A stretch of DNA of 64,000 nt from Eubacteriales bacterium (GTDB taxonomy: Bacteria; Bacillota; Clostridia; Oscillospirales; CAG-272). The stretch's first letter is position 1; each line of letters opens with the position of its first letter. Where the stretch lies: contig JBGVRT010000005.1 in NCBI GenBank assembly GCA_045128735.1, forward strand, positions 7,843-71,842. The letters run 5' to 3'. This document shows, piece after piece, positions 28,253-53,231 of this stretch. The notes under the pieces were generated by a model. The model saw only the letters and a list, made by a program, of their open reading frames with translations. It did not search any database and had not been told where the DNA came from. The translations under genes and the position numbers were made by a program.

Positions 28253-31200
28253 GTGAAGTATATTGCCCGAGACGAACGCATTCCGCAGGATAGGCGCCGC
28301 GAGCTGAATGACAAGATCCTGTACTTGATAGATGCCGATCTGGCAGAAGCATCAGGCGTTTCCCGTGAGGATATCTACAATGCTTACACGGGGGATGGCG
28401 GACTCCACGGTTTACAGCGTTCGGACTACGACAGCTATTCCGATTATAGTGACGCCAAGAAAGAGATCGAGAACGGACAATTCTTCACGCCACCGAGTAT
28501 ATGTCAAACGGTAGCCAAGTGTATCGGTGTAGGAAAAGGCGATCTTATCGCAGATTTGACCTGCGGTATAGGCAATTTCTTCAATTTTATGCCTACAGAA
28601 AATAATCTTTACGGCTGTGAATTGGATAACAAAGCCTATAAGGTCGCTCGTTACCTATATCCCGATGCCAATATCGTTAATCAGGATATCCGACTGTATC
28701 AGCCGGGTATCCTCTTTGATTATGTGCTCGGCAATCCGCCCTTTAATCTGAAATGGTGGATCGAAGGTAGCAAGGAAATTAAGTCCCAGCTTTATTACTG
28801 CATCAAGGCACACGAGCTGCTAAAGCCCTGCGGTATTATGGCAATCGTTGTTCCAAGCTCGTTTCTTTCAGACGATTTTATTGATGGAAACGTAATTGCG
28901 GATATGAATGCTAAATTTCGCTTTCTCGGTCAGTTTTCCTTACCCGAAAATGCCTTTAGTGCTATGGGTGTGCAGTCGTTCCCCACAAAGCTTCAATTCT
29001 GGCAGAAAAGAAAGGATGCTGAGGACGTTTCTATGCCGTATTGCACCGATTGCCCCACCTCTGTCACTTATGAGCTTACAGAGCGAATAAATGAGGCTAA
29101 GGAGGCACTTTCAAGCAGCAGAATGGATATTCTGAAGGCAACGGCACAAAACAAGGAAACGTCGGCAAGCTTTGCGTATCAGGTGGACAAAATGCTCTAT
29201 CAGATAAGGGTGCATCCGCGTATATCTTCGGAGCATTCTCGCTGCTGCGCATACGTTCACCGCTTCTATACTGAGAAGCAGCCCGAAAGTATGCCGTATA
29301 CCGAATGGTGCCGTGTGAGGTTGACCGAGGCGAAGGTGCTTTCCTATCTCAAAAAGGTGCTCAAAAAGCAAAACGAGCGACCGTCGGAGGACAGGATCGC
29401 CCTTGTAAAACGGGATTATGATTTCGTTTATAAGGGGTATTCCTATGCTTCAAGCCGTCAGCTCAGCGATCAAATGAAAAAGCCTGTGCCGATGTATCTT
29501 TTAGCCTCCTCGGACGGAGATAACGGATTTACGCCATACTCCAAGCTGATAGAAAGAAAGCAGCGTGAATATGCGATACAAAATCAACAGTTCTCGGATA
29601 TGGTGCTTGATGATAACATTTCCCGCGCTCTTGACGAATTTACCCTATGGGACTCGGAGAACGAGGAAAAAATACACCTTAACGAAAAGCAAAAGAAGGA
29701 TATCAATCTGATGCTCCAAAAGCGTTACGGACTGCTTCAATGGGAGCAGGGCTGCGGTAAGACGCTTGCCGGAATTGCCGTTGGTCTCTACCGTATGCAA
29801 TATCAGAACGTGCATCACACTTGGGTTATATCCTCGGCAATCTCGATCCGAAACAACTGGGATATTGTTCTGAAGAATTACGGACTATCCTACGTGTTCG
29901 TTGAAGAGCTTTCCGACTTTGACTGTATCCAAAGGGGCGATTTCGTTATCATTACGTTGAATGCTTTGAGAAAATATCAAAAGCAGATCAAGCGTTGGGT
30001 ACGCATACACAACGAAAAGCTTCAGCTAATATTTGATGAGAGCGACGAGATATCCAACGCATCGGGAGCGACGACCAAGGCGTGCCTTGATTGCTTCCGC
30101 CGCGTAAAATATAAGCTGTTGGAAACAGGCACGAGTACGCGAAACAATATCTCTGAGTTTGCTCCGCAGATGGAACTGCTCTACAACAATTCCTACAATA
30201 TGATCTCTTGGTGTGACCGCATATACAAGAGAGATAAGGAAACCGGAGATTTGAATTCTGAGGAAAATGATTATTTCGGTATGCCGATTCCCGCATACAA
30301 GCGTGGGTATTCCTTGTTTTCCGCTTCTCACTTGCCTGAAAAGATAACCGTTTTCGGTGTTGGGCAACGAACACAAGACATCTACAATGCCGACGTTCTA
30401 AGCGAGATACTTGGCAAAACAGTCATTACCCGAACCTTTGAGGAAATCACGGGCAAGGACATACGGCGTATCCATCAGATTCCCGTGAAGTTCAGTGAGG
30501 CTGAGAAAGCCGTGTATCAGCAAGCAATCGAGAAATTTTACGAGATGCGTTGGAACTATTTTCAGTCTACCGGCAATTCCCGAAAGGACTCTATGATGAT
30601 CCTGATGCAGCAGATCCTCACGCTCCTTCGTATCAGCGCGGCGCCAAGCTCTATGAGTGAATACGTAGGCGATACTCCCGTGAAGATCCAAAAAGTGCTT
30701 TCAATGGTAGAAGAATGGGACGATGAGATCGTGGCTATCGGTGTGCGGCACATTCCTGTGCTTGAAGAATACCGTAAGGCGATTGAGGAAGCATTCCCAG
30801 ACAGACCTCTGTTCGTTGTCACGGGTGGAAATACCACCTTTGCCAAGCGGAGAGCGTTACGGAAAACCCTCAAGGAAAGCGGAAACGGAATTCTGCTTTG
30901 CACACAGCAGAGCTTACCCAGCAGCGTGAATTTTGAGTACGTCAACAAGATCGTCATTCCCGAGCTCCACTACAATAATTCCCGAATGAGTCAGTTTTAT
31001 ATGCGCTTTGTGCGATATACCTCTACCGAGTGGAAGGACATCTATTTCGTCACCTATGCCGGAAGCATAGAATCCAATCTTATGCAGATGGTTATGGCTA
31101 AGGAAAAGCTCAATTTGTTCATGAAGGGACAGGATGCAGATCTTGACGAGATCTATGAGAAGTTCGGCGTTGACTACAATTTGCCCTCGCTTCTGATGAG

Positions 31201-31261
31201 GCGCGAGGCGGACAGCGAAGGAAAGCTCCACATACGTTGGGGAGAACAAAATATAGCGTAA
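28253..31261 (+). CDS. Fusion of N6-adenine DNA methyltransferase (N-terminal) and SNF2/DEAD-like helicase (C-terminal)
   Basis: MTase motifs FFTPP, DLTCGIGNFF (motif I) and LGNPPF (motif IV, NPPF). Helicase motifs GCGKT (I), IFDESDE (II) and ETGTSTRN (III). AGGAGG lies 9 nt before the GTG start. Confidence 0.8.
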   Translation: MKYIARDERIPQDRRRELNDKILYLIDADLAEASGVSREDIYNAYTGDGGLHGLQRSDYDSYSDYSDAKKEIENGQFFTPPSICQTVAKCIGVGKGDLIADLTCGIGNFFNFMPTENNLYGCELDNKAYKVARYLYPDANIVNQDIRLYQPGILFDYVLGNPPFNLKWWIEGSKEIKSQLYYCIKAHELLKPCGIMAIVVPSSFLSDDFIDGNVIADMNAKFRFLGQFSLPENAFSAMGVQSFPTKLQFWQKRKDAEDVSMPYCTDCPTSVTYELTERINEAKEALSSSRMDILKATAQNKETSASFAYQVDKMLYQIRVHPRISSEHSRCCAYVHRFYTEKQPESMPYTEWCRVRLTEAKVLSYLKKVLKKQNERPSEDRIALVKRDYDFVYKGYSYASSRQLSDQMKKPVPMYLLASSDGDNGFTPYSKLIERKQREYAIQNQQFSDMVLDDNISRALDEFTLWDSENEEKIHLNEKQKKDINLMLQKRYGLLQWEQGCGKTLAGIAVGLYRMQYQNVHHTWVISSAISIRNNWDIVLKNYGLSYVFVEELSDFDCIQRGDFVIITLNALRKYQKQIKRWVRIHNEKLQLIFDESDEISNASGATTKACLDCFRRVKYKLLETGTSTRNNISEFAPQMELLYNNSYNMISWCDRIYKRDKETGDLNSEENDYFGMPIPAYKRGYSLFSASHLPEKITVFGVGQRTQDIYNADVLSEILGKTVITRTFEEITGKDIRRIHQIPVKFSEAEKAVYQQAIEKFYEMRWNYFQSTGNSRKDSMMILMQQILTLLRISAAPSSMSEYVGDTPVKIQKVLSMVEEWDDEIVAIGVRHIPVLEEYRKAIEEAFPDRPLFVVTGGNTTFAKRRALRKTLKESGNGILLCTQQSLPSSVNFEYVNKIVIPELHYNNSRMSQFYMRFVRYTSTEWKDIYFVTYAGSIESNLMQMVMAKEKLNLFMKGQDADLDEIYEKFGVDYNLPSLLMRREADSEGKLHIRWGEQNIA

Positions 31262-34456: not shown

Positions 34457-34850
34457 CAGGCAGGTCAAGCAAGATGTGCTTACCACCTATCGTCGCATAA
34501 CTTGGAAAATATGGGTGTATCTCAAAGCCAATCCCGATGTGCTTGCCGAAAATAACAATCAAGAAGTATATGATGAGGTTGCAAGGATACAAACAGATAT
34601 ATACCTGCGCCGCAATCCCGATCAGACGCGCGAAGAAGCATTTAGTACGCAGGACTTCCTCTCGGACTTGGAGGCAAAGTATCATGCCGAAGATTATTAT
34701 TTTGAACAAGAGCTGATGGACTTGTTCAGACCAAGCGTAGAGCATAATAAAGCATGGGGCGCAAGGATGTTCTTGGAACTGTTCTTTTACTCGGGTATGC
34801 CGGAGAGCTATACGAAATCGGTGCACCAAATGGTAATTGATGAAGAATAA
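34422..34850 (+). CDS. Hypothetical protein
   Basis: TTG start follows AAGGAGG and overlaps the upstream gene. No motif recognised. Confidence 0.3.
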   Translation: MLKKTKKMKWNSRQVKQDVLTTYRRITWKIWVYLKANPDVLAENNNQEVYDEVARIQTDIYLRRNPDQTREEAFSTQDFLSDLEAKYHAEDYYFEQELMDLFRPSVEHNKAWGARMFLELFFYSGMPESYTKSVHQMVIDEE

Positions 34851-35016
34851 ACGTAGAAGTTTGATTATGTAGGAAGGATAGTAAACAGGAACAAGAAACC
34901 AATAAAAACAAAATAATTGTGTGGTATAAAACTCTATCTGTATCGGAGGTTTAGGGATTATTCGCAAAGATTTGGTAAAATAATAGTACCAAGACCTAAC
35001 GTAAGGAGAGTGTTTT

Positions 35017-35856
35017 ATGAAAAAAATTGTAACGTCAAAGAAAATAAAAGACTTTGAAATCTATTTAAGAAACGAGGAAAGGAGTAAAGCAACGATAGAA
35101 AAATATATGCGTGATGTGAGATGTTTCATATCGTTTGTTGGTGATACGGAAATTGACAAGCAGAAAGTACTCGATTATAAAAACAAACTTAGCGATGGAT
35201 ATGCTGTGGCAAGTGCCAATTCTATGATAGCAGCATTGAACTGTTTTCTTCGCTTTTGCGGTTGGCATGATCTTTGCGTTAAGCAGTTCAAAGTGCAAAG
35301 AACCATTTACTGTCCCGAGGAAAAGGAGCTCACCCGTGAGGAGTATGTTCGTTTGCTTGAAGCGGCAAGCAGAAAGAACAATGAGAGACTTAACCTTATC
35401 ATTCAGACGATTTGCGGAACGGGCATTCGTGTAAGTGAACTTGAATATATCACCGTGGAGGCGGTACAAAGGAGCGAGGCTGTCGTTAATTGCAAGGGGA
35501 AGAACAGAAAAATATTTATTGTTCCCGAATTAAGAAAAAAACTGCTCCGTTATGCAAAGGAGCAGAGGATATGTAGTGGAACGATATTTATAACCAGAGG
35601 CGGAAAACCGGTCAGCAGGCATCATATTTGGAAGGAAATGAAGGCACTTTGTGAGCAGGCGAATGTACCGCCAAGCAAGGTATTTCCACACAATCTTCGT
35701 CATCTTTTTGCTCGTACCTTTTACGGTATTGAAAAGGACATTGCCAAACTCGCAGATATACTGGGACACGCAAGCATCAACACGACACGTATTTATATAG
35801 TAACCACCGGTGCGGAGCACAAGCGCAAAATGGAGCATATGAGGCTCATCATATAA
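35017..35856 (+). CDS. Small XerC/D-like tyrosine recombinase
   Basis: 279 aa with an N-terminal core-binding domain. Catalytic residues are visible in GTGIRVSEL (R), HNLRHLF (HxxR), GHASINTT (H) and TRIY (Y). Confidence 0.85.
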   Translation: MKKIVTSKKIKDFEIYLRNEERSKATIEKYMRDVRCFISFVGDTEIDKQKVLDYKNKLSDGYAVASANSMIAALNCFLRFCGWHDLCVKQFKVQRTIYCPEEKELTREEYVRLLEAASRKNNERLNLIIQTICGTGIRVSELEYITVEAVQRSEAVVNCKGKNRKIFIVPELRKKLLRYAKEQRICSGTIFITRGGKPVSRHHIWKEMKALCEQANVPPSKVFPHNLRHLFARTFYGIEKDIAKLADILGHASINTTRIYIVTTGAEHKRKMEHMRLII

Positions 35857-35896
35857 AGAAAAAAAATCCCGATGCGAACACACCGAGACCAAAGAC

Positions 35897-35916
35897 AACA
35901 TAACGAGAGTTATGTT
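35897..35916. promoter_or_regulatory. Palindromic site A (AACATAAC GAGA GTTATGTT), candidate recombinase site
   Basis: 8-bp arms around a 4-nt centre. The centre is the reverse complement of that in sites B and C. Confidence 0.4.
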
Positions 35917-35980
35917 ATTAAAAACTGGTAATCGTTGCAAAAGAACAATGAAGCAAAGCAAAAAATGAGCGCAACAAAAA

Positions 35981-36026
35981 GCCTTTCGCCATAATTTTTT
36001 GAAAAATTTATACGAAAGGCATTTTT
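35981..36026. terminator. Bidirectional terminator-like hairpin
   Basis: GCCTTTCG ... CGAAAGGC stem with a self-complementary AT-rich loop. An A-run precedes it and ATTTTTG follows. Confidence 0.5.
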
Positions 36027-36093
36027 GTCATGCAATTTTTTGTATCAATTTTAATAAAATTTCATTGTGAGCTTATAAATTCTGCCGAACCTA

Positions 36094-36122
36094 TTGATTT
36101 TTAAGTGATTTTGTGGTATAAT
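36094..36122 (+). promoter_or_regulatory. Near-consensus extended -10 promoter facing the TetR/TasA-like locus
   Basis: TTGATT, 17-nt spacer, TGgTATAAT. Confidence 0.65.
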
Positions 36123-36158
36123 CTCCTATGTATCTGGAATTTGTCGGATACCTAATAT

Positions 36159-36178
36159 CACATAACTCTCGTTATGTT
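36159..36178. promoter_or_regulatory. Palindromic site B (CACATAAC TCTC GTTATGTT)
   Basis: 19 of 20 positions match the reverse complement of site A. Confidence 0.4.
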
Positions 36179-36188
36179 ATTTTGAAGG

Positions 36189-36216
36189 CGACATAACTCT
36201 CGTTATGTCGCTTTTT
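36189..36216 (+). terminator. Palindromic site C (CGACATAAC TCTC GTTATGTCG) followed by CTTTTT; terminator-like
   Basis: 9-bp stem, 4-nt loop and a T-run. Same centre orientation as site B. Confidence 0.45.
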
Positions 36217-36353
36217 ACTTAGTGGACGGCATATTTATTAAGCTTCCTATGTAAATAGGAAATTTTTTAGGAATGTTTTGTAGTGTTCACTAATTGCCTT
36301 CTTGTTAATTTAGAAAATTTATCGGTTGCATGTGAAATGGAGGGGATAACCGA

Positions 36354-36968
36354 ATGAGGTACGAAGCGGAAATAAAAGAGTTTCTGATTGAAAATGCCAT
36401 ACATCTTATTGCCGAAGGCGGCTTTGAAAAAGCGACAACTAAGGAACTTACTTACTGCGGAGGTCATCTGCCGGATTTCAAGATGAACGAGGTATATATT
36501 TACCGTTTTTTCGGTAGCAAGGAAAAACTATACGAGACAGCTTTTGTTCGATTGGATTCGGAGCTTATTCAAGCCTTTAAGAACGGTACGGAAATCGTCG
36601 GTGGCTTTGGTGGTGACATTAAGCGCAAGTTAAATGAATTTTTCATTTTAGCTTGGCGGTTCATCTTGGGTAACGAAGAGCGTTGCCGTTGCTATGTTAG
36701 ATATTACTATTCGATCTATTTCAAAGGTGATTCCCGAATGTCTCACAAGAAACTTTTCGAGGGAATCATAACGGAAGTGACTCCGATCTTTAAAGAAGAG
36801 GCGGACGTCGAAGCTATATTACACAGCGTTTTTACCGCAATGTTTGATTTTGCCATTCGTGTGTATAACGGTGAGCTTGAGGATAGTGATATTAACAGAC
36901 CCCATATCTTCAATGTGCTCTACTGTATGATGGCGACATATTTCAAGGAGTCGGTAAAAGCGTCGTAG
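36354..36968 (+). CDS. TetR-family transcriptional regulator
   Basis: N-terminal HTH region FLIENAIHLIAEGGFEKATTKELTYCGG ... VYIYRFFGSKEKLYETAF. 204 aa. GGAGGGG RBS. Confidence 0.6.
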   Translation: MRYEAEIKEFLIENAIHLIAEGGFEKATTKELTYCGGHLPDFKMNEVYIYRFFGSKEKLYETAFVRLDSELIQAFKNGTEIVGGFGGDIKRKLNEFFILAWRFILGNEERCRCYVRYYYSIYFKGDSRMSHKKLFEGIITEVTPIFKEEADVEAILHSVFTAMFDFAIRVYNGELEDSDINRPHIFNVLYCMMATYFKESVKAS

Positions 36969-36986: not shown

Positions 36987-37229
36987 TTGAAAAAGCAAGA
37001 AGAAGCAAAGAAAATCGAACAAAAAACTGAAAGCAAGGTAGTGTATATTGCTGCAAGCACAAATACTTGTATTTCTTGTGGCAGAGAAATACCTGAAGGT
37101 ATATTTGTCTGTATGGAGTGCGAGCAGGGATTGTTTCGTCCGAAATGTGTGTTTTGTAATACACCCCTACAAAATGGGCAATCCGTTTGTATGAAATGCA
37201 GCGATATGTTCTTGCGCAGAAAACCTTAA
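36987..37229 (+). CDS. Small double zinc-ribbon protein
   Basis: CISCG...CMEC and CVFCN...CMKC. TTG start 7 nt after AGGAG. Confidence 0.4.
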   Translation: MKKQEEAKKIEQKTESKVVYIAASTNTCISCGREIPEGIFVCMECEQGLFRPKCVFCNTPLQNGQSVCMKCSDMFLRRKP

Positions 37230-37280
37230 TTGAAAGTCCACACATATTTATCATTGTAATTTTAAGAGAGGAGGATAGCG

Positions 37281-39896
37281 ATGCCCAAAAACAGAAAAGA
37301 ATCTGACAATAAACTCATTAAGGGCGCGATGATTGCGGGCACCGCAATAGCAGGATTTTTTGCGCTTGTAGGGCAAAAGATATATAGAGGCATAAAGTTT
37401 GATAAGGTAATTGGTAAGGATGATCCAAACGCTACCGTCAAACGCATCAATAATATGAAGCGAGTTGCTGTGATGATTGGATTGGCAATTCTCATCCTTA
37501 TTATAATTATGCTACTGCTCCGTGGTTGTCAAGGCGGCGAGCCACCACACGGTTCTGTCGATATTCCCGGTAACGTCATAGACCCTCAGCCAACGGAGAT
37601 AACGCCAAAGGCAGATTTGGAGTTTAATAAGGACAATGCCGAAGAAAACCTTTCGTTTGACGTAGAGGGGATGAACGGCGGAGATAGTGAGAGTATTCTT
37701 TACCGCGTAGTGGCTACATACAATTCGGATTTCGTTTTGAAATACGATATGACGATCCGTGAGGATGAAGAATTTCAAAAGCTTGCTGAAATACTGAAAA
37801 TTAAGGTTGAGCTTATGAAGACAGACGGTGATGCGCTTTTGTATGACGGTCTGCTCTCCGATATGTCGGCTATTGAAATTGCTCTGATTGCCGACAAGGA
37901 TACCACAACCGAGTATCTGTTTCGTATCACTATGTATCTTGATGCTCCGCTTAGTGAGCAGTATTATGGACAAAAGTTGATAGCCGATATGTCTTGGTGG
38001 ATCGAAGAGCAGGACAATATTTCGATTGCCAACAACGAATTTACTACTGTCTCCAAAACGACACCGCCCGATCCGCCTGCCATAACACCGAATTTAAGCT
38101 TTATCACGAAAAATGAAGGCGATAACACCGCATTTGATATGCGGCATATTATGAACGGCGATAGTCAGACAAGATATTTTGCCTTTGAGGTAACTCACGG
38201 CGAAGATATAAAGATGGGTATTCAAAACGCCATTGTGACTGACAGCAAGCTGAAGGAAGTGCTGAATGTCAAGGTTGAACTTGTTGGAGAAAACGGAAAC
38301 ACCACGCTTTACGAAGGTTTGTTGAAAGATCTTACCGTAGAACATACCCTCGCCCCAAACAACAGCAACAAGACAACAGTTTATTATAAAGTCACGGTCA
38401 CAGCGAACGGCTTGACCGAGGCATACTGCGAGACGAAGATCGTTTGTGATCTCTCGTGGTCGCTGATCGGAACGACGGAACAGCTTAAGGTTCCCAACAA
38501 TAGCTTTATTGCTTACTATAAGCCCGTAACACCACCCGATCCCGTTGTTACTCCCGATTTGATTTTTGTCGTGAAGAACGAGGGCGACAACACAGCTTTC
38601 GATATGAAGGATATCGAAAACGGCGACAGCCAAACAAAGTATTTTGCTTTTGAGGTTACTCATGGCGAAGATATTAAGGTTGCTATCAAAAATGCCATTA
38701 CCGTTGACAGTAATCTTCGAGACGTATTGAAAGTGAAGGTAGAGCTTGTAGGTGAAAACGGTAATACCACTCTCTACGAGGGTCTGCTAAAGGATCTCAG
38801 TGTTGAACACACACTTGCTGAGAACGCAAATGACAAAACGACAGTTTATTATAAAGTAACTGTTACCGCAGATTGTTTGACAGAAACATATTGTGAAAAC
38901 AAATTGGTGTGCGACTTGGTATGGTCGCTCGTCGGAACGACCGAGCAGCTTAAAGTATCCAACAATACTTTTGTTGCTTACGACAAGCCCGTAACCCCTC
39001 CCGATCCTCCGCCCCCTCCTGTGATTACTCCCGATTTGAAATTTATCGAGAAAAACGAGGGTGATAACACAGCCTTCGATATGAAGGATATTGAAAACGG
39101 AGATAGTCAAACAAAGTATTTTGCTTTTGAGGTGACTCACGGCGAAGACATTAAGGTTGTGATCAAGAATGATGTTGTTCTTGACAGCAAGCTTAATGAG
39201 GTTATCAAGGTTAAGGTTGAACTTGTGGGTGAGAACGGAAATACAATTCTGTACGAGGGATTGTTGAAAGATCTTACCGCAGAACATATTCTTCCTAAAA
39301 ACGATAGCAATAAAACAACTGTATATTACAAAGTTACCGTTGTTGCTGACGGTTTGACTGAGGATTATTGTGAAGCAAAGCTTGTTTGCGACCTCTCTTG
39401 GTCACTTAGTGGAACAAGTGAGCAGCTTAAAGTGCCGAGCAATAGCTTTGTTGCCTACGATAAACCTGTTACTCCGCCCCCTCCACCGCCCGAAACAGCA
39501 ACATCTATCGAGCTTACTGCAAAGGATGGGTATGAAAATATCCCCTTTGATGTAAAAAATATGCTTCCCGGTGACATGGCGACACAATATTATTGTGTTT
39601 CGGTTACCCATAACAAGAGCGAGTCTGTCCGTTTTTATATCAATGTTGACACGACTCAAAAGCTCTCAAATGTACTTAGAGTAAAAATCGAGCAACTTAT
39701 CCCCGATGCGGCGGATAAGATTCTGTATGATGGGTTGATGAAGGACTGCACCGCAGTTGATGTGAGTGTTACAGCTACTTCTGAAACAATTACTCCCATT
39801 TATTATCGTATAACCGTTTATACCAATGGCGCAGAGGTTGGCAACGAATATGTGGGCGAAAGCCTTACCGCTGATTTCTCGTGGCAATTACAGTAA
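37281..39896 (+). CDS. Membrane-anchored protein with five tandem TasA/camelysin-like domains
   Basis: N-terminal TM segments are followed by five about 150-aa units, each with FD(M/V)xxxxxGDSxTxYFxFEV(T)H ... LYxGLLKD ... YYK(V/I)TV ... DxSW, joined by PPDP/PPPPP linkers. GAGGAGG RBS. Confidence 0.7.
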   Translation: MPKNRKESDNKLIKGAMIAGTAIAGFFALVGQKIYRGIKFDKVIGKDDPNATVKRINNMKRVAVMIGLAILILIIIMLLLRGCQGGEPPHGSVDIPGNVIDPQPTEITPKADLEFNKDNAEENLSFDVEGMNGGDSESILYRVVATYNSDFVLKYDMTIREDEEFQKLAEILKIKVELMKTDGDALLYDGLLSDMSAIEIALIADKDTTTEYLFRITMYLDAPLSEQYYGQKLIADMSWWIEEQDNISIANNEFTTVSKTTPPDPPAITPNLSFITKNEGDNTAFDMRHIMNGDSQTRYFAFEVTHGEDIKMGIQNAIVTDSKLKEVLNVKVELVGENGNTTLYEGLLKDLTVEHTLAPNNSNKTTVYYKVTVTANGLTEAYCETKIVCDLSWSLIGTTEQLKVPNNSFIAYYKPVTPPDPVVTPDLIFVVKNEGDNTAFDMKDIENGDSQTKYFAFEVTHGEDIKVAIKNAITVDSNLRDVLKVKVELVGENGNTTLYEGLLKDLSVEHTLAENANDKTTVYYKVTVTADCLTETYCENKLVCDLVWSLVGTTEQLKVSNNTFVAYDKPVTPPDPPPPPVITPDLKFIEKNEGDNTAFDMKDIENGDSQTKYFAFEVTHGEDIKVVIKNDVVLDSKLNEVIKVKVELVGENGNTILYEGLLKDLTAEHILPKNDSNKTTVYYKVTVVADGLTEDYCEAKLVCDLSWSLSGTSEQLKVPSNSFVAYDKPVTPPPPPPETATSIELTAKDGYENIPFDVKNMLPGDMATQYYCVSVTHNKSESVRFYINVDTTQKLSNVLRVKIEQLIPDAADKILYDGLMKDCTAVDVSVTATSETITPIYYRITVYTNGAEVGNEYVGESLTADFSWQLQ
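38079..39491 (+). repeat. Three highly similar 465-477-nt in-frame tandem repeats (domains 2-4)
   Basis: Units start at 38079, 38544 and 39021. Their translations are mostly identical (for example KNEGDNTAFDMKDIENGDSQTKYFAFEVTHGEDIKV). Confidence 0.85.
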
Positions 39897-39911
39897 AGGA
39901 GGAAAAGGTAT

Positions 39912-40460
39912 ATGAATGAGCAACAATTAAAGAAAAAGTTAACAGTGATGATCGTAACCGTCGTCCTCCTTTCCATAGGACTCACGCTTACCAGCTTTGC
40001 TTTAGCTACCTCTATCGCGCAAGTTCGCAACAATCGTTTTGCCATGAGTATGGGCGTGGAGCTCACCATCAATGACGGCAAACCTGTTGTAGATGTAACC
40101 GATATGGTTTTTGCACCGGGAGAAACCTACCAAAGTGAGTTTCCTATTGCAAATCTCGGTACATTTGACGTGTGGTATCGCGTGTATTTCACCGATGTAG
40201 AAGGAGTGCTGAAGGATTACATAACAGTCACAATTAAAGAAGCCGATGGAACGGTTCTCTGCAAGGGAACAATGAGCGAACTCGGTTCCAACAAGGTTGC
40301 GGTAAGCTCACTTGCCGCCGGAGAGAAAAAAACACTTACCATTGAATTTTATTTCTCGTCCGAGGCGGGCAACACCGCACAAGGACAGTCGGTATCCTTC
40401 AACATTACCGCAAATGCAACGCAAAAGCAAAATAATCCCGATAAGGATTTCGGTAATTGA
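39912..40460 (+). CDS. TasA/camelysin-like secreted subunit
   Basis: TM/signal region ending TSFALATSIAQVRNNRFAMSMGVELTI aligns with the TasA GTFAFFSD...NNTFAAGTLDL region. 182 aa. Immediately upstream of the signal peptidase gene. Confidence 0.6.
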   Translation: MNEQQLKKKLTVMIVTVVLLSIGLTLTSFALATSIAQVRNNRFAMSMGVELTINDGKPVVDVTDMVFAPGETYQSEFPIANLGTFDVWYRVYFTDVEGVLKDYITVTIKEADGTVLCKGTMSELGSNKVAVSSLAAGEKKTLTIEFYFSSEAGNTAQGQSVSFNITANATQKQNNPDKDFGN

Positions 40461-40471
40461 AGGAGGAACGA

Positions 40472-41206
40472 ATGAAAAAAGCATTACAAATTACAAAAAC
40501 GGTGTTAGTGTGGCTTGTAGTCGCCTTCGCCGTTGGAATGATGATATTCACATTGATTTCGGTAAGCACGTTTGATAAAACGGATAGAAACATATTTGGC
40601 TTCAAATTCTTCATCGTAACGAGTGATTCAATGTCAGCCACCGATTTTGACGCAGGAGACATTGCGATCTCAAAGAATGTTGATCCGAAAGTGTTAAAGG
40701 AAGGTGACATCATTACGTTCTTGTCGCAGGATCCTGATAGCTTCGGCGAGATTATCACACATAAGATCAGACGTTTGACGACCGATGCAAACGGTCGCCC
40801 CGGTTTTATCACCTACGGTACAACAACGGATACGGATGATAAAACTGTTGTTACGCACGAATACGTTGTCGGTCAATACATTGGCAAGATACCGAAGGTA
40901 GGTACGTTTTTTCAGTTTCTTAAAACGACACCCGGCTATATTATTTGTATTCTTGTTCCTTTTCTGCTTCTTATTCTTTCTCAAGGACTTAATTGCATCC
41001 GTCTGTTCCGTCAGTACAAGAAAGAACAAATGGAAGAAATGAACGCCGAGCGAGCAAAGATTGAGGAGGAACGCGCCGAAAGCCAGCGCATGATGGCGGA
41101 GCTTCTTGAACTGAAAGCACAGCTTGCCAAACAAAACCAATCTGATGGAACACCCTCAGCACCTATGTCCGAGGTGAGTGCGGAAAGCACAACGGACGAA
41201 ACATAA
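40472..41206 (+). CDS. sipW: SipW-type (ER/archaeal-type, S26B) signal peptidase I with C-terminal TM and coiled-coil extension
   Basis: Motifs FIVTSDSMSATDFDAGDIAI (catalytic Ser), GDIITF and EIITHKI (His). A second TM near residue 160 is followed by an E/K/Q-rich tail. AAGGAGG precedes the ATG at 40472. Confidence 0.8.
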   Translation: MKKALQITKTVLVWLVVAFAVGMMIFTLISVSTFDKTDRNIFGFKFFIVTSDSMSATDFDAGDIAISKNVDPKVLKEGDIITFLSQDPDSFGEIITHKIRRLTTDANGRPGFITYGTTTDTDDKTVVTHEYVVGQYIGKIPKVGTFFQFLKTTPGYIICILVPFLLLILSQGLNCIRLFRQYKKEQMEEMNAERAKIEEERAESQRMMAELLELKAQLAKQNQSDGTPSAPMSEVSAESTTDET

Positions 41207-41279
41207 AAGATGTTTAGCAGAAAGCCTGCTTTACATAGTTAGTCTAACAAAAAATATGCCAAAAAGGAGGTAAGAAAAA

Positions 41280-41936
41280 ATGACTAACACAAAGACAACC
41301 AAGCGCTCACTTCTCGCAAGCGTCATGGCACTGTTCCTCTGCTTCACGATGCTGCTCGGGACGACATTCGCTTGGTTTACAGACAGCGTTACCAGCGCAA
41401 ACAATATTATCAAAGCTGGTAATCTGGACATCGAGCTTTATCACAGCGATAAGGCAATAACCGATGAAAAGGTTGGCGAAAGCACCAAGCTTTTCGACGA
41501 AGTAGCTCTTTGGGAGCCCGGCGTAATGGTATGGGAAGAGCTTACAGTTAAGAATGAGGGCGACCTTGCTCTTAAGTATCAGCTTACTCTCAACGTGCTT
41601 GAGGCAACCGAAATCGACGGTGTATCCTTTGCATCTATGTTGAAGGTTGCACTTGTTGACGATGGATTTGAGTACACCCGTGAGAACGTAGAGGCTATTG
41701 CAGCTGACGAATGGCAGGATCTTGCAACCTTTACTCTTGCAGGTAAGCTTGACAAAACAGAAAATGACGTTTACGGAATCGTTATCTGGTGGCAGCCCTC
41801 CGATAATGACAACCTGTTCAATATGAACAATGGCAACAAGGGCAAGGAAGTTAGCGTTCAGGTTGGCGTAACCCTTCTCGCTACTCAGCTTGAGGCTGAA
41901 AACGATGCATTTGGCAACGATTACGATGAGGACGCA
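41280..41936 (+). repeat. Copy 1 of an about 0.66-kb near-identical 5' coding module (partner at 47642-48298)
   Basis: Manual alignment shows long identical runs, for example tgggaagagcttacagttaagaatgagggcgaccttgctcttaagtatcagcttactctcaacgtgcttgaggcaaccgaaatcgacggtgtatcctttgc in both copies. Confidence 0.85.
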
Positions 41937-44222
41937 TGGGTTGAGGGCTATAAGGTTTATAGCGCAGAAGATCTTAATGCAGCTATCGCAAACGGCGAGA
42001 CTGAAATTGCTCTGATGGCTGATGTAGAGCTTGAAGAGCCTATCGTAATTCCCGCACCCGCAGTGGCTACATACTCTGCAAGAAATGCGGTTGTTATCGA
42101 CCTTAACGGCAAGACCATCACCGGTGCGGTTGGACGCGATGCAGAGGGTAACCGTGTCCACGTTATTGTAAACAACGGCAACGCGGTAATCAAGAACGGT
42201 ACCGTCACTTCCGCTGGCGTTAACGGCGGTTCTGCTATCTATAATGCTGAAGGTGCAACCTTGACCGTTGAGGATGTAATCCTGAACGGTGCACCTCAGG
42301 AAGGCGAAACTTGGCCCTCCTACACCGTTAACAACTATGGCACTTTGACTGTGACCGATAGCTCTATTTACGGCGTGCAGGGTATCATCGCTACTAACAA
42401 TACTGCCAACACAACAGTTAATAACGTAATTGCTTACAGAGATGGTTGGAGCTCCGGTCATGTGTTCTACACCTCCTCCACCGCTAAGGTAACCGTTAAC
42501 GGCGGCATCTACACCAACGACGGCAATGGTGTCGACGGCACGTTGATTTATGGCGGCGAAACCGTTATTAACGGCGGTACCTTCATTCTTCAAGAGGGTA
42601 CGTACTTTGCATTGTTCGCAGACTCGAAGCTGACTGTTAATGACGGCGATTTCTCCAACATTAAGAGCGTTCTTGCTTGGGGCGGTGCTATGACTGTTAA
42701 CGGCGGCACCTTCGGCTTTGATCCTACTGCTTATGTTGGCTCCGGCTATAAGGCTACCGAAGCAAACGGCGTTTGGACTGTTGCATTCCCTCAGGAATCT
42801 TTCGATGCTCTGATTGACGGCGCTGCTGATGATGCCACCATCGAGATTCCTGCTGGTACCTACACTTTCCCCGCTGCCGATTTGAAGGCTGGTCAGACCC
42901 TGAACTGTGCTCCTGGTACTGTTTTTGAGGGTGCCAAGTTGAATGCTAACGGTGCTACCATTGTAGGCGCTACCTTCTCTAATGCTGCACAGTCTAATAC
43001 TGTTAATGGTATCTATAAGGATTGCACCTTTACTGGCAGCAACGGCTTGCGTTGGGGCTATGCAGGTGATGTTGTCGTATTTGAAAACTGTGTCTTCAGC
43101 GGTTCTACGTATGGCGTCCATTTCGATGGTGGCGCAACTAAGGTTGTCTTCAAGAATTGCACTTTCAGCGGCTTCAACGCTATGGCTGGTTCTATTGAGC
43201 TGGTTACCTTTGAAGGCTGTACCTTTGTTGCAAACGGTAAGAGCAACTACAACGGCATCAATATGTGGGGCAACACTGAAATGACCAACTGCACCTTCGT
43301 CTTTGACGGTACTGCTGATTACGAGTGGATCGACCTCTGCGCTGGAAATACGTATGCTACCTTCACCAACTGTGTTGTGACCGATGGTGAAAAGGAGTAT
43401 GGTGTCGAAGAATACGTATCTAAGCGTGAGAATAGTGGTGTTATCACTGTTGATGGCAAGCAGATTGTCCACAATGCTTCCGCTCTGCAATACGCAGTTG
43501 ATAATGTTGCTGATGGTACCACCATCGCTCTCGGCGCTGACATCGCCGGCGACGTAACTGTTGCTCAAAAGCCTGATGTCAAGATCACCATTGATGGCAA
43601 CGGCCATGCCTTCGCAGGTGTACTCCTTGTAGACGGTAAGTCCGCAACCTACACCACTGCAGGCTTGACCATCAAGAGTGTGGTATTCAAGTCTGAGACC
43701 ATTTCCGCTGACGCTTGCATTCAGTTGGGCAATGGCACCAATGAAACCCGTTACACCTGCAACGTAACTGTTGACGGTTGTACCTTTGACGTTCCCGGCG
43801 CAGTTGGCGTTAAGTCCTACACCGGCGGCGACAAGAACGTGATCATCACCGGTTGCACCGCGACCGCAAATACCCACTCTCTTGCTCAGCTCAAGGGTGT
43901 TGATGGCGTTCTGGTAGAGAACTGCAAGGTTTATTCTAAGAATGGTATCAACTTTAACAACAGTGACAATGTTATTGTGAAGGGTTGTGAAGTTGATGTA
44001 AAGGGTTATGCAGTTCGCTTTGGCGAAAGCTCCGGTGGCACAGGTGCTGCTGAAACTTATAAGATCGAAAACTGCACTCTGAAGTCCCAGAATGATGATG
44101 GCGATGCTGCCGTTGTTCTCCGTGGTACTGCAGACAATTCGACCCTGACTATCGTGAACACCACCATTGTTGGAACTCCCGATATCCAGAATACTGCTAC
44201 GAACGCAAAGGTCGTGAAGTAA
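41280..44222 (+). CDS. SipW-dependent-signal protein 1: TasA-like N-module plus parallel beta-helix passenger (980 aa)
   Basis: Signal KRSLLASVMALFLCFTMLLGTTFAWFTDSVTSANNIIKAGNLDIEL. The C-terminal about 750 aa is rich in NGG/TVNGG/NC(T/V)F beta-helix-like repeats. No cell-wall anchor. Confidence 0.75.
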   Translation: MTNTKTTKRSLLASVMALFLCFTMLLGTTFAWFTDSVTSANNIIKAGNLDIELYHSDKAITDEKVGESTKLFDEVALWEPGVMVWEELTVKNEGDLALKYQLTLNVLEATEIDGVSFASMLKVALVDDGFEYTRENVEAIAADEWQDLATFTLAGKLDKTENDVYGIVIWWQPSDNDNLFNMNNGNKGKEVSVQVGVTLLATQLEAENDAFGNDYDEDAWVEGYKVYSAEDLNAAIANGETEIALMADVELEEPIVIPAPAVATYSARNAVVIDLNGKTITGAVGRDAEGNRVHVIVNNGNAVIKNGTVTSAGVNGGSAIYNAEGATLTVEDVILNGAPQEGETWPSYTVNNYGTLTVTDSSIYGVQGIIATNNTANTTVNNVIAYRDGWSSGHVFYTSSTAKVTVNGGIYTNDGNGVDGTLIYGGETVINGGTFILQEGTYFALFADSKLTVNDGDFSNIKSVLAWGGAMTVNGGTFGFDPTAYVGSGYKATEANGVWTVAFPQESFDALIDGAADDATIEIPAGTYTFPAADLKAGQTLNCAPGTVFEGAKLNANGATIVGATFSNAAQSNTVNGIYKDCTFTGSNGLRWGYAGDVVVFENCVFSGSTYGVHFDGGATKVVFKNCTFSGFNAMAGSIELVTFEGCTFVANGKSNYNGINMWGNTEMTNCTFVFDGTADYEWIDLCAGNTYATFTNCVVTDGEKEYGVEEYVSKRENSGVITVDGKQIVHNASALQYAVDNVADGTTIALGADIAGDVTVAQKPDVKITIDGNGHAFAGVLLVDGKSATYTTAGLTIKSVVFKSETISADACIQLGNGTNETRYTCNVTVDGCTFDVPGAVGVKSYTGGDKNVIITGCTATANTHSLAQLKGVDGVLVENCKVYSKNGINFNNSDNVIVKGCEVDVKGYAVRFGESSGGTGAAETYKIENCTLKSQNDDGDAAVVLRGTADNSTLTIVNTTIVGTPDIQNTATNAKVVK

Positions 44223-44230
44223 TTCCCCCC

Positions 44231-44303
44231 GCCACCCAACCCCTTCGGGGGTTGGGCGGCAATTAAAGCGCATAAGATTTGTGCTTGTGCGTTTTAATTG
44301 CCG
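44231..44303 (+). terminator. Tandem double hairpin at the 3' end of paralog 1
   Basis: Hairpin 1 is CCCAACCCC-TTCG-GGGGTTGGG. Hairpin 2 is CGGCAATTAAAGCGCATAAG...CTTGTGCGTTTTAATTGCCG, whose G-U pairs only work in the + strand RNA. Confidence 0.6.
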
Positions 44304-44353
44304 TTGAAAACGACAAATGTTAGCCAACATCAACAACAATAGGAGGTAAAAGA

Positions 44354-47326
44354 ATGACTAACACAAAATCCACAAAGCGTGCATTGCTTACAAGCGTTTT
44401 GGCTTTGTTCCTTTGCTTTACAATGCTGCTTGGGACGACATTCGCTTGGTTCACCGACAGTGTGACAAGCGCAAACAACATTATCAAGTCGGGCAATCTT
44501 GATATTGAGCTTTATCATAGTGACGATAAAGCAGATCGCGCAAAAGTCGATAACACTACGGTGCTATTTGACGATATTGCCCTTTGGGAGCCCGGTGCAG
44601 TTGTTTATGAGACTTTGGAAGTTGTAAATGAGGGTGATCTTGCACTCAAATATCAGCTTGCTGTCAATGTAACGAATGCAACGGCAAACGCCAATGGCAA
44701 CACGCTTTCAAATATATTGAAAGTGGGAGTTATCGAGGGCGGTGCTACCATCACCGATCGCGTTGCTTTGATTGGTGCGGTAGATGAGTGGATGTCACTC
44801 TCTTCATTCGTTGAGGCAGGCGATCTTGTCAATAAAAACGAGAGCGACATATACACGGTCGTAATCTATTGGGAGCCGAGTGAATACGATAACGATTACA
44901 ATATGAACAACGGTAAGGGTGATCCCCTTACGCTTGATATCGGCGTAACACTCTTTGCAACTCAGCTTGCTGCCGAAATGGACTCGTTTGATGAAAATTA
45001 CGACAAGGACAGCGCAGTTGCTACCGTTGCAGAAGCTGAAGCCATGATGGTTGAAAACAAGGATGTTACCTTGGCAGGCTGTAATGAGCCCGATAGCGTA
45101 TTGAATGTTCCCGCTACTTATACAGGCACGTTGACTTTGGTGAATACTAATGTCAAGTCCGTACAGGCTGAAAAAGATGCAAACATTGTTGTTCTTGGCA
45201 ATGTAACAGTCGATGCTAATGGTAGTGGTATCGCTATGATGGCTTTGGATACGGATGCATTTGACGGTTCCGCAATTTCCGCAAACGGTGTACTTAATAT
45301 TTCCGGAAGCGGTAAACTCACTGCTATTGCGGCTGATGTAAACGGTGCCTCCGGTATCGGAGGCAAGAATGCCACCGAAATCAATATCGAGGGTGTTACT
45401 ATTGATTACGTTTCGGGTAGCTTTGCTTATGGCGTAGGTTCTGATACAAAGTATTATAAGGATGCTCCTGAAGGCGGCGCGGCAATCGGTTCCGATATTG
45501 ACGGCGCGGTTATCACCTTGAATAACGTAATTGTAAATAAGGCAATCGGCGGTTCTAAGGCAGCTGGTATCGGTGCTCGTTTCCACAAGGGCGTTACCGT
45601 TAATATTGTTGATTCCGCTATTGCATATGTAGAGGGCGGTGTTTCTGCCGCAGGTATCGGTGGTAGCCGTGTAAGCAACGGTGCAACCGAGAACGGAACG
45701 ACCATTAACATCAGCGGCTCTACAATCAACGCAAAGGGCGGCGTATATGGCGCAGGTATTGGTTCGGGCTATGATACCCACTGCCAATCCGTTCAGCCTT
45801 TGTGCACCATTAACATCGACGATTCGATCATCACCGCCGAGGGTGGACAGCATGCAGCAGGTGTTGGTACGGGTTATCACAACGCAGCTCTTGATGGTGT
45901 GATTAAGAACAGTACTGTAAATGCAAAATCCGGCGAGATGTGGTATAAGGATAGTTATACTTGCGCTCAGAACATCGGATTTGGTGTTGTAGATCCGGCT
46001 CGTGAGGGACAGCAGACCGATAGCAAACTCGTTAATAATGGAGTAGAAATCAGAATTCCTGCGCCCGGAAAAGCGGCTATCGTTTCTTCCGCTGACGAGT
46101 TGAAAGCGGCTCTTGCCAGTAAAATTCCCAATATCTTCCTTTCCGCAAACATTCAGCTGAATGAAAATATGGATGTTTTAGCCAATACGATCATTAACGG
46201 TAACGGCTACTCTGTTTTTCGCGCTGACGGAACGGCATTGATGACTCTCTCTGAAGATGAAAGTTCTACTATCTATACTGGTGCTATGTTTACCGTAAAG
46301 AGCGGAGCCACATTAACTCTTGAAAACGTGGTTGTTGACGGTGGTGCCATCTGGACCGGTGAAATCAATGAGGTTCTTCAGAGAGGAACCGTTAACGCAG
46401 GTGTTACCGCAACCGGTGCTCTCGTTTCTACCGAGGCTAATGCTCATCTCGTACTCAACGAGGGCGCAGTACTTCAGAACAATGATGGTGCAAACGCGGT
46501 TTCCCTCAATACCCGTGCAGGATGCACTCTTACCATAAACGGCGGTGAGATTATCAACAACCATTCCGCAGCAGGTGCGATCTGGGGCGGCGGTGCAATC
46601 ACCCTCAACGCTGGTAAGATCAACGGCAATCACGGCGGCATCGGCGGCGCAATTCGTGCCGTAACAAACATTGGTACGCTCCTTACGATGAACGGCGGCG
46701 AGATAAACCACAACTATTCCGACGGTAACGGCGGCGCTATCTGGGCAGGCTCGAGTAGCAGTAACAACGTGTACGTGCTGAACGGCGGCGAAATGGCTTA
46801 TAACTATTCCGCAACGACCGGCGGTGCTATCTACGCAGGATACTACGAGACCGTTAAGATCGGCGGAACCTTCAAGATGCACGACAATAGCTGTGCCGCG
46901 GATCTCGGCGCTGAGATCCGATTCCACGATCACGCAAGCCTTGTTATGACGGGCGGTGAGGTTTCCAATGAGGCGGATAACGCATTCTACCTCAACAACA
47001 ACTCCGCTTCCATCACCGGCGGTAAGTACGTCGGCAACTTCGGCTACAGCGGCGGCTTGGGTCTTACCCTCGGCGAGGTAGAGATTGACGGTGTTATCAC
47101 CTACAATCTTGCCACTAACCATAATACCGCATATCTTGCGGCAGAATTCGGCAACTTCAAGTTCACTATAAACGAGACCGCTTCCAACTTTGCTCAGTTC
47201 AACTTCAAACCTGCGGAAGGATACATCTACACCGAAGGCGATGAAGCAAAGCTTGTTTGCATGAACGATGGTTATGAAACCTATTGGGATGCATCTACAA
47301 GCACCTTTAGACTTCAGGCAAAATAA
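44354..47326 (+). CDS. SipW-dependent-signal protein 2: TasA-like N-module plus GGAI (Pmp-like) beta-helix passenger (990 aa)
   Basis: Same signal peptide (LLGTTFAWFTDSVTSANNIIKSGNLDIEL). The C-terminal region has repeated GGAIWGG, GGAIRAV, NGGAIWAG and TGGAIYAG motifs. Confidence 0.75.
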   Translation: MTNTKSTKRALLTSVLALFLCFTMLLGTTFAWFTDSVTSANNIIKSGNLDIELYHSDDKADRAKVDNTTVLFDDIALWEPGAVVYETLEVVNEGDLALKYQLAVNVTNATANANGNTLSNILKVGVIEGGATITDRVALIGAVDEWMSLSSFVEAGDLVNKNESDIYTVVIYWEPSEYDNDYNMNNGKGDPLTLDIGVTLFATQLAAEMDSFDENYDKDSAVATVAEAEAMMVENKDVTLAGCNEPDSVLNVPATYTGTLTLVNTNVKSVQAEKDANIVVLGNVTVDANGSGIAMMALDTDAFDGSAISANGVLNISGSGKLTAIAADVNGASGIGGKNATEINIEGVTIDYVSGSFAYGVGSDTKYYKDAPEGGAAIGSDIDGAVITLNNVIVNKAIGGSKAAGIGARFHKGVTVNIVDSAIAYVEGGVSAAGIGGSRVSNGATENGTTINISGSTINAKGGVYGAGIGSGYDTHCQSVQPLCTINIDDSIITAEGGQHAAGVGTGYHNAALDGVIKNSTVNAKSGEMWYKDSYTCAQNIGFGVVDPAREGQQTDSKLVNNGVEIRIPAPGKAAIVSSADELKAALASKIPNIFLSANIQLNENMDVLANTIINGNGYSVFRADGTALMTLSEDESSTIYTGAMFTVKSGATLTLENVVVDGGAIWTGEINEVLQRGTVNAGVTATGALVSTEANAHLVLNEGAVLQNNDGANAVSLNTRAGCTLTINGGEIINNHSAAGAIWGGGAITLNAGKINGNHGGIGGAIRAVTNIGTLLTMNGGEINHNYSDGNGGAIWAGSSSSNNVYVLNGGEMAYNYSATTGGAIYAGYYETVKIGGTFKMHDNSCAADLGAEIRFHDHASLVMTGGEVSNEADNAFYLNNNSASITGGKYVGNFGYSGGLGLTLGEVEIDGVITYNLATNHNTAYLAAEFGNFKFTINETASNFAQFNFKPAEGYIYTEGDEAKLVCMNDGYETYWDASTSTFRLQAK

Positions 47327-47341
47327 TTATTTTCAGTCCGT

Positions 47342-47410
47342 CCTATCCCTTTTTGTGAGGGATAGGCGGCGATCAAAGGGTATAAATCCGTTTGTGCCTT
47401 TTGATCGCCG
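47342..47410 (+). terminator. Tandem double hairpin at the 3' end of paralog 2
   Basis: CCTATCCCT-TTTTGTG-AGGGATAGG, then CGGCGATCAAAGGG...CCTTTTGATCGCCG. Same architecture and GG|CGGC junction as the other two copies, but different stem sequences. Confidence 0.6.
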
Positions 47411-47459
47411 AAGACTAAGACAACGACGGTGAAATGCCGAACGGAAAGGAGACAATATT

Positions 47460-47552: not shown

Positions 47553-47641
47553 GGTTCGTTAAAAACCGCCTTTTGGTTCTCTCAGCATAGCCAAAATGTC
47601 GGTTCGCATATATGCTGAAAGAAACTAAATAGGAGGTCTTT

Positions 47642-53155: not shown

Positions 53156-53163
53156 CTCTTTCT

Positions 53164-53210: not shown

Positions 53211-53231
53211 CGTGCTATAAGCACCGCTTTT

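Follow-up and report, generated by a model that had tools for sequence, protein, structure and literature searches.

Do the three palindromes that lie between a small recombinase gene and a surface-protein operon form a DNA inversion switch, or are they terminators or sites for moving the operon itself? The question is posed by a 64,000-nucleotide stretch of an Eubacteriales bacterium (positions 7,843 to 71,842 of contig JBGVRT010000005.1, GenBank assembly GCA_045128735.1), hereafter called the window, in which the gene for an Xer-like tyrosine recombinase is followed by sites A, B, and C and then by an operon of TetR-like, SipW, and TasA-like genes, the cargo. We conclude that the locus is very probably a phase-variation switch, in which the recombinase inverts a promoter segment in front of this operon. 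We observe the sites, their inversion products in nature, and a family-wide covariation of the site centres. The positions of all features are collected in Table 1.

Recombination sites

The initial annotation had described three copies of the palindrome ACATAAC-N4-GTTATGT, with A inverted relative to B and C and with a 4-nt asymmetric centre. When the whole window was searched with this pattern, allowing up to 2 mismatches, exactly these three copies were recovered, all inside ~310 bp; no fourth match occurs anywhere else in the 64 kb, nor at the far end of the cargo. Shuffled sequence gives a mean of 0.23 matches, and three matches were reached in 0 of 100 shuffles. The 18-nt cores read ACATAA-N6-TTATGT, and the cores of A and of B/C are the same sequence save for a reversed centre, CGAGAG in A and its reverse complement, CTCTCG, in B and C, which confirms the opposed orientation. 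The asymmetry of the centre stands as described, but its length does not: cross-locus comparison gives 6 nt, flanked by the invariant arms ACATAA and TTATGT. Beyond the cores, A and B form a 27-nt inverted repeat with 89% complementarity. The sites thus share with Xer core sites, whose centres span 6 to 8 bp, a pair of inverted arms around a short centre, and the 6-nt centre acts as a unit over 25 variants. The core CATAA-N6-TTATG resembles the E. coli dif sequence.

Inverted forms in metagenome contigs

Metagenome contigs were chosen that encode exactly the same recombinase protein (labels of the form L002 denote contigs and loci). In L002 and L003 the recombinase gene is identical to that of the window at 840/840 positions, and the DNA downstream of site A is the reverse complement of window positions 35916-36190. 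L002 matches the predicted product of an A x C inversion at 304/305 bases, with the promoter pointing at the recombinase, and L003, a further rearranged form of the same element, matches that product at 305/305 over the aligned part. L005 has the orientation of the window. The inversion that had been predicted for the segment between A and B/C is thus found in nature, in the flipped form L002. Spacer x, the short stretch between B and C, is found in reverse-complement form (CGCCTTCAAAATA) on the left side of the promoter segment in six contigs: L002, L003, L089, L091, L092, and L093.

More arrangements are seen in a sister element, whose recombinase (protein P0121) has a gene 820/840 identical to that of the window and whose four sites separate the invertible segment, S, from spacers x (13 nt) and y (14 nt). 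With the orientation of each piece written as a sign, the arrangements are S+ x+ y+ (L094, L096), x- S- y+ (L093), x- S+ y+ (L089, L091), y- S- x+ (L088), y- S+ x+ (L097), S- y+ x+ (L090), x- S+ (L092), and S+ x+ (the window), to which L002 and L003 add the partial arrangements x- S- and x- y- S-. Every listed arrangement can be interconverted by inversion between a GAGA site and a TCTC site. L088, L089, and L090 are identical at 839-840/840 positions of the recombinase gene and at 599-600/600 positions of the DNA downstream of the switch, and have three different arrangements; they are one element in three states. Both orientations therefore exist in nature, as seen in L002 and in the set L088/L089/L090.

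It is hardly credible that these arrangements are assembly artefacts of the inverted repeats. Many contigs do break at the sites, but L090, L092-L094, L096, and L097 are MEGAHIT k141 contigs that span the whole switch, with real 141-mers crossing each junction, and misassembly by repeats is excluded in them because the repeats, at 18-27 nt, are far shorter than k=141. The same arrangements also recur in independent samples, in L089 and L091 and again in L094 and L096.

The contig breaks themselves may be informative. Logan assemblies use k=31. In one of them, from sample SRR25030128, contig L004 ends on the final base of core A, and L098, whose TetR-like protein is identical to that of the window, starts exactly 30 nt short of where the last core ends. 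If k is 31, these ends are suggestive of a branch in the assembly graph at the site boundary, with more than one continuation present in SRR25030128. When Joint Genome Institute metagenomes were scanned for the left junction, a single contig, L101, was found; it is in the flipped state and has two left sites.

A family of switches in Clostridia

A genome scan, with one genome per species, gave 80 loci with recombinases 65-91% identical to that of the window, all of them from Clostridia of human, ruminant, and chicken guts. In 71/80 loci the recombinase gene ends no more than about 60 nt from a site. Where enough DNA follows, the first site is mostly 30-60 nt past the stop codon (full range, 5-75 nt; an insertion interrupts one locus), and a further site stands ~220-380 nt on from the first, usually 240-265 nt. 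In L039, ~630 nt of GC-rich DNA with an internal direct repeat lie between the recombinase stop codon and the first site, and may be a small mobile insertion.

At least two sites are present in 65/80 loci, and in 62 of these 65 the left and right 6-nt centres are exact reverse complements. There are 25 distinct centres, none of them palindromic, set between invariant ACATAA and TTATGT arms; the three exceptions are due to an early contig end, a one-base difference, and a spurious third match. This covariation is the pattern expected of the crossover region of a tyrosine recombinase, where the partners match and the asymmetry sets the orientation. The same finding weighs on another explanation, already offered in the initial annotation, that the palindromes are plain intrinsic terminators, or copies of a dispersed element like repetitive extragenic palindromes, which stand next to a recombinase gene by coincidence. 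We consider this extremely improbable. Although each site is a hairpin, and the hairpin of site C, at -18 kcal/mol, is followed by TTTTT, a terminator has no reason to match its centre to that of a second one, a dispersed element would not be limited to three copies within ~310 bp of a 64-kb stretch, and neither would invert the DNA between the sites in otherwise identical elements.

A promoter of the form TTGnnn-N17-TGnTATAAT is present in 54/63 genome loci, and mostly 35-49 nt separate the end of its -10 element from one boundary of the segment. The promoter is directed at the cargo in 17 loci and at the recombinase in 37, and 9 are ambiguous. Near-identical promoter segments stand in opposite orientations in L009 versus L020 and in L001/L040 versus L019/L021. 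The order that holds across the 80 loci is recombinase, first site, promoter-bearing segment of about 245 bp, second site with the reverse-complement centre, and + strand cargo. Tandem sites are confined to the close subfamily, at about one-quarter of the genome loci.

In most loci with enough downstream DNA, the first genes to the right of the switch are on the + strand, and in the distant subfamily a ribosome-binding site often lies ~20-40 nt past the right site. The neighbours upstream of the recombinase vary, with a helix-turn-helix gene in 17 loci, a DUF6809 gene in 9, and the neighbours seen in the window in one or two. As these neighbours are not conserved, the conserved unit is the recombinase plus the switch. 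The layout extends to ~50% identical homologues on megaplasmids of two isolates, Pusillibacter faecalis (pMM59_01, L099) and Monoglobus pectinilyticus (L100). The repeat of L099 differs in sequence: ACAAAAACAACATTTCGT is present in two left-hand copies, of which the second is one base off, and in a single inverted copy ~286 nt away, with a gene for an S-layer-homology protein downstream. In L100 the left site overlaps the recombinase stop codon. A megablast search of the locus against plasmids and a blastn search against phages gave no match.

Promoter and terminators of the invertible segment

Read in the orientation of its promoter, S begins with ~45 variable nt, followed by a near-invariant A5-GCCTTTCG...CGAAAGGC-T5 hairpin, an AT-rich stretch, the promoter, a short palindrome, and a CTAATATC block adjoining the site. 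The two features of S that the initial annotation had pointed out, a near-consensus promoter aimed at the cargo and a bidirectional terminator hairpin, are both upheld as sequence. The promoter scores 10/12, the top value of the region in a promoter scan. The hairpin, preceded by an A run and followed by a T run, is strong on either strand (-22.2 kcal/mol on the + strand, -26.1 on the - strand). It is the best conserved block of S among the 28 loci compared; RNAalifold keeps 6 pairs, one of which has a compensatory G-C to A-U change in 3 sequences, and judged from this alignment its conservation lies mainly in the sequence.

The position of the promoter also bears on how such a switch would work. 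In cwpV, the switch acts through terminator formation, with the promoter outside the segment. That mechanism, with a terminator formed in the OFF state, does not apply here: S contains the only strong promoter, which inverts together with it, as in fimS. A variant of the segment is seen in L026 (6885-7230), where 318 nt hold two divergent promoters around a central terminator. Judged by this layout, inversion in L026 is a swap of promoters, not an on/off change, with the cargo faced by a promoter either way. The TetR-like gene downstream of the L026 switch looks truncated.

Between the recombinase stop codon and site A lies a leftward terminator, which folds at -12.5 kcal/mol (z -4.95) with U8 next. 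It works on the - strand only, because its G-U pairs exist only in minus-strand RNA. A hairpin after an A run is found at this position in most loci of both subfamilies despite differing sequence, which fits a design in which antisense transcription of the recombinase gene from the flipped promoter has to be prevented. This has a bearing on a further possibility, that inversion is real and its main target is the recombinase, with antisense RNA from the flipped promoter silencing the recombinase and locking the switch, and the cargo secondary. The promoter does face the recombinase in 37 of the 54 genomes with clear orientation, yet the widespread leftward terminator between the first site and the recombinase stop codon argues for selection against antisense transcription, and cargo genes begin directly past the right site. 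We therefore think it very improbable that the recombinase is the main target.

Further hairpins lie on the path from the promoter to the cargo. The stem-loop just past the predicted transcription start has -7.7 kcal/mol, insignificant versus shuffles, and in some loci compensatory changes preserve it in part. The idea that this palindrome is an operator of the TetR-like protein was considered and set aside, since it is inconsistently kept in loci that have the gene. The hairpin of site B reaches -5.7 kcal/mol. That of site C, with its flanks, reaches -18.3 kcal/mol (z -8.5), with a U run next; this strength requires x+ beside the fixed right flank, and y+ or S+ at that place gives -11 or -6 kcal/mol. 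Spacers x and y always offer their U-rich strand to transcription that leaves S. The right flank of many close-subfamily loci holds a hairpin and T run like the second leader hairpin of the window. A search of Rfam with positions 34800-36500 gave no known RNA family, the single match (anti-hemB, 20.7 bits against a threshold of 49.5) being at chance level.

The recombinase

The recombinase has a SAM-like N-terminal domain and all catalytic motifs of tyrosine recombinases: GIR(138), CKGK(160/162), H225-x-x-R228, H251, and Y260. Its closest solved structures are of the archaeal XerA type (4A8E and 5HXY), and the models that match it best are those of XerA, XerD, and XerC. All scores lie far below the Xer equivalog cut-offs, with XerA at 146.5 bits (cut-off, 220), XerD at 119.3 (329.6), XerC at 113.5 (335.15), and XerS at 59.5 (267). 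XerA acts without a partner recombinase on dif sites whose two arms resemble each other, and a like solo action would fit the symmetric arms of the sites described here. Models of the FimB/FimE type stay far below their thresholds (PRK09870, 28.1 bits, cut-off 221; PRK09871, 22.6 bits, cut-off 222), as does the integron integrase model TIGR02249 (62.3 bits, cut-off 265); a site-bounded cassette array is absent from the 64-kb window, which holds no further site. More than 8,000 homologues were returned by a search, and the 120 best listed are all at least 81% identical to the recombinase. We infer that this recombinase is the catalyst of inversion.

Upstream of the recombinase gene lies its likely promoter, in which the -10 part of the switch promoter recurs: positions 34911-34929 and 36103-36121 (TTGTGTGGTATAA and TTTGTGGTATAA) form a 19-nt direct repeat with 84% identity. 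Because of a poor -35 element, 34911-34930 was not flagged in the promoter scan. Similar promoters may thus serve the recombinase and the cargo.

The cargo operon and the conjugative element

The cargo genes are tightly spaced and share the + strand. A TetR-like gene followed by SipW and TasA-like genes is the usual cargo of the close subfamily, the TetR-like gene being first in 17 genome loci. Distant-subfamily cargo includes a 1318-aa collagen-repeat protein, a cohesin-dockerin protein, a TIR-DUF6273 protein, and a zinc-ribbon/SPFH/DUF6591 set. In L044, L045, L048, L052, L067, and others, the switch often precedes genes for zinc-ribbon, SPFH/GYF, and DUF6591 proteins or for a TIR-TPR-DUF6273 protein; these could be phase-variable defence or stress systems. 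A TnpV-like gene lies on the opposite strand a few kb downstream of the switch in 11 loci. Our literature search found no paper that ties SipW/TasA-like loci to DNA inversion.

At the far end of the cargo, an open reading frame (ORF) of 365 aa at 50410-51507 has only weak matches to the SAM-like N-terminal domain of tyrosine recombinases and no match to the catalytic domain, and may be a degenerate or divergent recombinase.

A separate observation concerns the junction between switch and cargo. Among L088-L097, the first 100 nt past the last site, a place that corresponds to window position 36209 onward, have in L093, L096, and L097 only 58-64 identical bases of 87-89 aligned (~66-72%), set against a 100% identical recombinase gene and a promoter segment 94-100% identical. 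The cargo thus changes exactly at the right-most site, a hint of cassette swapping by site-specific or homologous recombination.

This drop, from 100% among identical recombinase genes to ~66-72% right after the right-most site, together with the dif-like form of the sites (CATAA-N6-TTATG), is what speaks for an alternative that extends the att/dif-like reading of the initial annotation: that the sites serve mainly to move or exchange the cargo cassette, by integration, excision, or swapping, with inversion as a side reaction. The dif-like form is confirmed, but the use made of it is inversion. The far cargo end and the rest of the window hold no matching site, so no circle can be excised here; the paired sites are always inverted; and the conserved promoter and terminator design of the segment makes sense only for inversion. 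We accordingly rate this role as improbable, and cassette exchange could be an additional activity.

The genes on both sides of the cargo and switch indicate that the window is a conjugative element, with conjugative-element regions at 1-31300 and 52000-64000.

Table 1. Features of the switch locus and of the surrounding element (positions in the window; a dot marks features given without a strand)
Feature	Position	Strand	Basis or remark
T2SSE-type ATPase	953-2266		conjugative-element gene
Listeria-Bacteroides-repeat protein, 1318 aa	5322-9278		
VirB4-like ATPase	10405-12900		
Coupling protein	15414-17213		
Fused N6-methylase/SNF2 helicase	28253-31261		
Likely recombinase promoter TGTGGTATAAA, extended -10	34911-34930	+	direct repeat of the switch-promoter -10 element
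Xer-like tyrosine recombinase, 279 aa, presumed invertase	35017-35856	+	Pfam Phage_integrase 1.7e-25, Phage_int_SAM_1 2.6e-8
Leftward terminator	35865-35890	-	terminator scan
Site A	35892-35918	.	core 35898-35915, centre CGAGAG; L004, L006, and L007 stop precisely at the final core base
Invertible segment S, 244 bp	35916-36159	.	in opposite orientation in two contigs of the same element, L002 and L003, and three of the sister element, L088, L090, and L093
Bidirectional intrinsic terminator within S, A5-GCCTTTCG...CGAAAGGC-T5	35969-36033	.	fold on both strands
Sigma-70-type promoter, TTGATT-17-TGgTATAAT	36094-36122	+	promoter scan; faces the cargo in the window
Palindrome or 5' stem-loop GTATCTGG...TCGGATAC	36130-36151	+	just past the predicted transcription start
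Site B	36157-36183	.	core 36160-36177, centre CTCTCG
Spacer x, 13 nt (TATTTTGAAGGCG)	36178-36190	.	between B and C; moved and flipped by A x C inversion
Site C	36188-36211	.	core 36191-36208, centre CTCTCG; long hairpin with spacer x and fixed flank, then U run
Second leader hairpin and T run	36244-36269	+	before the TetR-like gene; -7.5 kcal/mol, insignificant
TetR-like regulator, 204 aa, first cargo gene	36354-36968	+	weak Pfam TetR_N match
Rest of cargo operon	36987-49540	+	Peptidase_M73 and Beta_helix matches
Small ORF	36987-37229	+	identical product in L098, with weak double-zinc-ribbon matches
871-aa protein	after the small ORF	+	cargo operon
TasA/camelysin-like protein, 182 aa	39912-40460	+	
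SipW-type signal peptidase	40457-41206	+	TIGR02228 signal peptidase I, above cut-off
Three large proteins with TasA-like N-terminus, 980, 990, and 632 aa	end of cargo operon	+	
PcfJ, PcfK, YodL-primase, and RecD-like helicase genes	56-64 kb	-	

Proposed mechanism

We propose that the recombinase would recombine site A with B or C, all of them dif-like sites, and that this would invert the intervening DNA because A is opposite in orientation to B and C. In the ON state, that of the window, transcription from the promoter would cross B and C and enter the TetR-like gene and the operon of SipW/TasA-like surface proteins. In the OFF state the flipped promoter would point at the recombinase gene, its transcription meeting site A and the leftward terminator, and the internal terminator would block read-through from the recombinase gene into the cargo. 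The internal hairpin would end transcripts arriving from both directions, which would leave the movable promoter as the sole driver of the cargo. The presence of two sites on the right allows the spacer to move to the left side, and the locus therefore has four arrangements, not two. On this scheme, the promoter is taken to be active and the cargo to be phase-variable.

Several points weigh against the scheme. The ON transcript must cross the site B hairpin, the -18 kcal/mol site C hairpin with its U run, and the hairpin at 36244-36269, so that cargo output may be low or conditional. A separate promoter for the TetR-like gene might lie within 36270-36340. The covariation in the internal terminator is weak, being one pair in 3 sequences. 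Switching is seen in contigs from other samples, not directly within the population of the window. We infer recombinase activity, transcription start, and cargo expression from the sequence. Finally, identity with a published group of invertons (group 139, compared below), which taxon, size, and layout make probable, could not be confirmed from the part of that study available.

The tandem sites and spacers invite a more tentative idea, namely that they form a stepped dimmer with several heritable expression levels, and that the same sites may permit swaps of cargo cassettes. We regard this as unlikely, if less so than the alternatives weighed above. Each site with its U-rich spacer would then be a weak terminator-like unit, and inversions would shift units across the promoter. 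The ON orientation would leave one, two, or three units between promoter and cargo, and x+ beside the fixed right flank, as in the window, would yield the strong -18 kcal/mol hairpin and U run. The fold energies suggest that the arrangements differ in output.

Significance

Whichever level of output it sets, the switch would mean that a conjugative element of gut Clostridia brings its own switch for a large SipW/TasA-like surface-fibre locus, and, as the switch is carried on such an element, the trait can spread horizontally already phase-variable. Recombinase and switch are nearly always together in the genome sample, and in relatives the switch fronts varied cargo (collagen-repeat, cohesin-dockerin, S-layer-homology, TIR, and SPFH proteins); from this variety, it would be a general module for variable expression of surface and defence genes in hard-to-culture bacteria. 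The site rule is simple, ACATAA-N6-TTATGT beside the gene and a site with the reverse-complement centre ~250 bp off, and makes such switches findable in assemblies without reads. It follows that contig breaks and differences of orientation at such loci are biological.

Comparison with known systems

fimS is a 314-bp invertible segment that carries the promoter of the E. coli type 1 fimbriae, has 9-bp repeats, and is served by the adjacent FimB and FimE recombinases. The present locus resembles it in having a short promoter-bearing segment (244 bp), inverted repeats, an adjacent tyrosine recombinase, and a surface-fibre operon. It differs in the recombinase, which is Xer-like with a SAM-like N-terminal domain and encoded by one gene where fim has two, and in the sites, which have palindromic dif-like cores and extra tandem copies in place of the 9-bp repeats.

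The RecV switches of C. difficile (cwpV, flgB, and cmrRST) work by tyrosine-recombinase inversion upstream of surface and motility genes (PMC7446863, PMC8844915), that of flgB acting after transcription start, via Rho (PMC7446863). They share with the present locus phase variation in Clostridia by inversion of short segments. Whereas RecV acts in trans on scattered switches, the recombinase here adjoins its one switch, and the promoter lies inside the segment.

Xer1 is encoded beside the multi-site vpma locus of Mycoplasma agalactiae, in which a single promoter is moved. Its inversions, by an Xer-like recombinase, switch surface proteins (PMC2268961). The vpma locus is like the present one, and like the shufflon, in using several sites, but its inversions move whole genes, whereas here a promoter cassette and 13-14-nt non-coding spacers move before a fixed operon. 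In the R64 shufflon (Rci, sfx sites), one tyrosine recombinase acts on more than two sites, with inversion only between opposed sites and many permutations. The same multi-site, multi-inversion behaviour is found here, with three sites in the window and four in the sister element, and with seven complete and two partial arrangements observed. R64, however, shuffles coding segments of a pilus tip protein, and the pieces shuffled here, the 244-bp S and the spacers, are non-coding. The Xer/dif systems (XerC/D, XerA, and XerH) share the XerA-type fold and structures and the inverted CATAA/TTATG-type arms around a 6-bp centre. Unlike them, the present recombinase falls far below the Xer cut-offs, its inverted sites lie beside its gene on a conjugative element instead of forming a single dimer-resolution site, and the outcome is inversion, not resolution.

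The closest published counterpart may be inverton group 139 of the 2025 PhaseFinderDC study of hCom2, a defined gut community of cultured strains, which according to the available part of that paper comprises 33 invertons, 32 of them in Clostridia, from 17 strains, and measures ~255 bp in two examples (PMC11892184). Group 139 and invertase group 35, an adjacent tyrosine recombinase, are there the strongest inverton-invertase link of the study, and the orientation ratios shifted during passaging (PMC11892184). Within that part, the paper goes without site anatomy, centre covariation, terminators, tandem sites, or TasA-like cargo (PMC11892184). Our homology searches and a cluster look-up returned no named cultured strains such as Intestinimonas or Clostridium sp. 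D5. What the present analysis adds is the anatomy of the sites, the insulating terminators, the small shufflon, and the location of the switch on a conjugative element. The switch is of a known kind, then, and is probably already catalogued in bulk; its tandem extra sites, which make it a small shufflon, are the unusual part. Functionally, it is a fimS-type inverton driven by an adjacent Xer-like recombinase.

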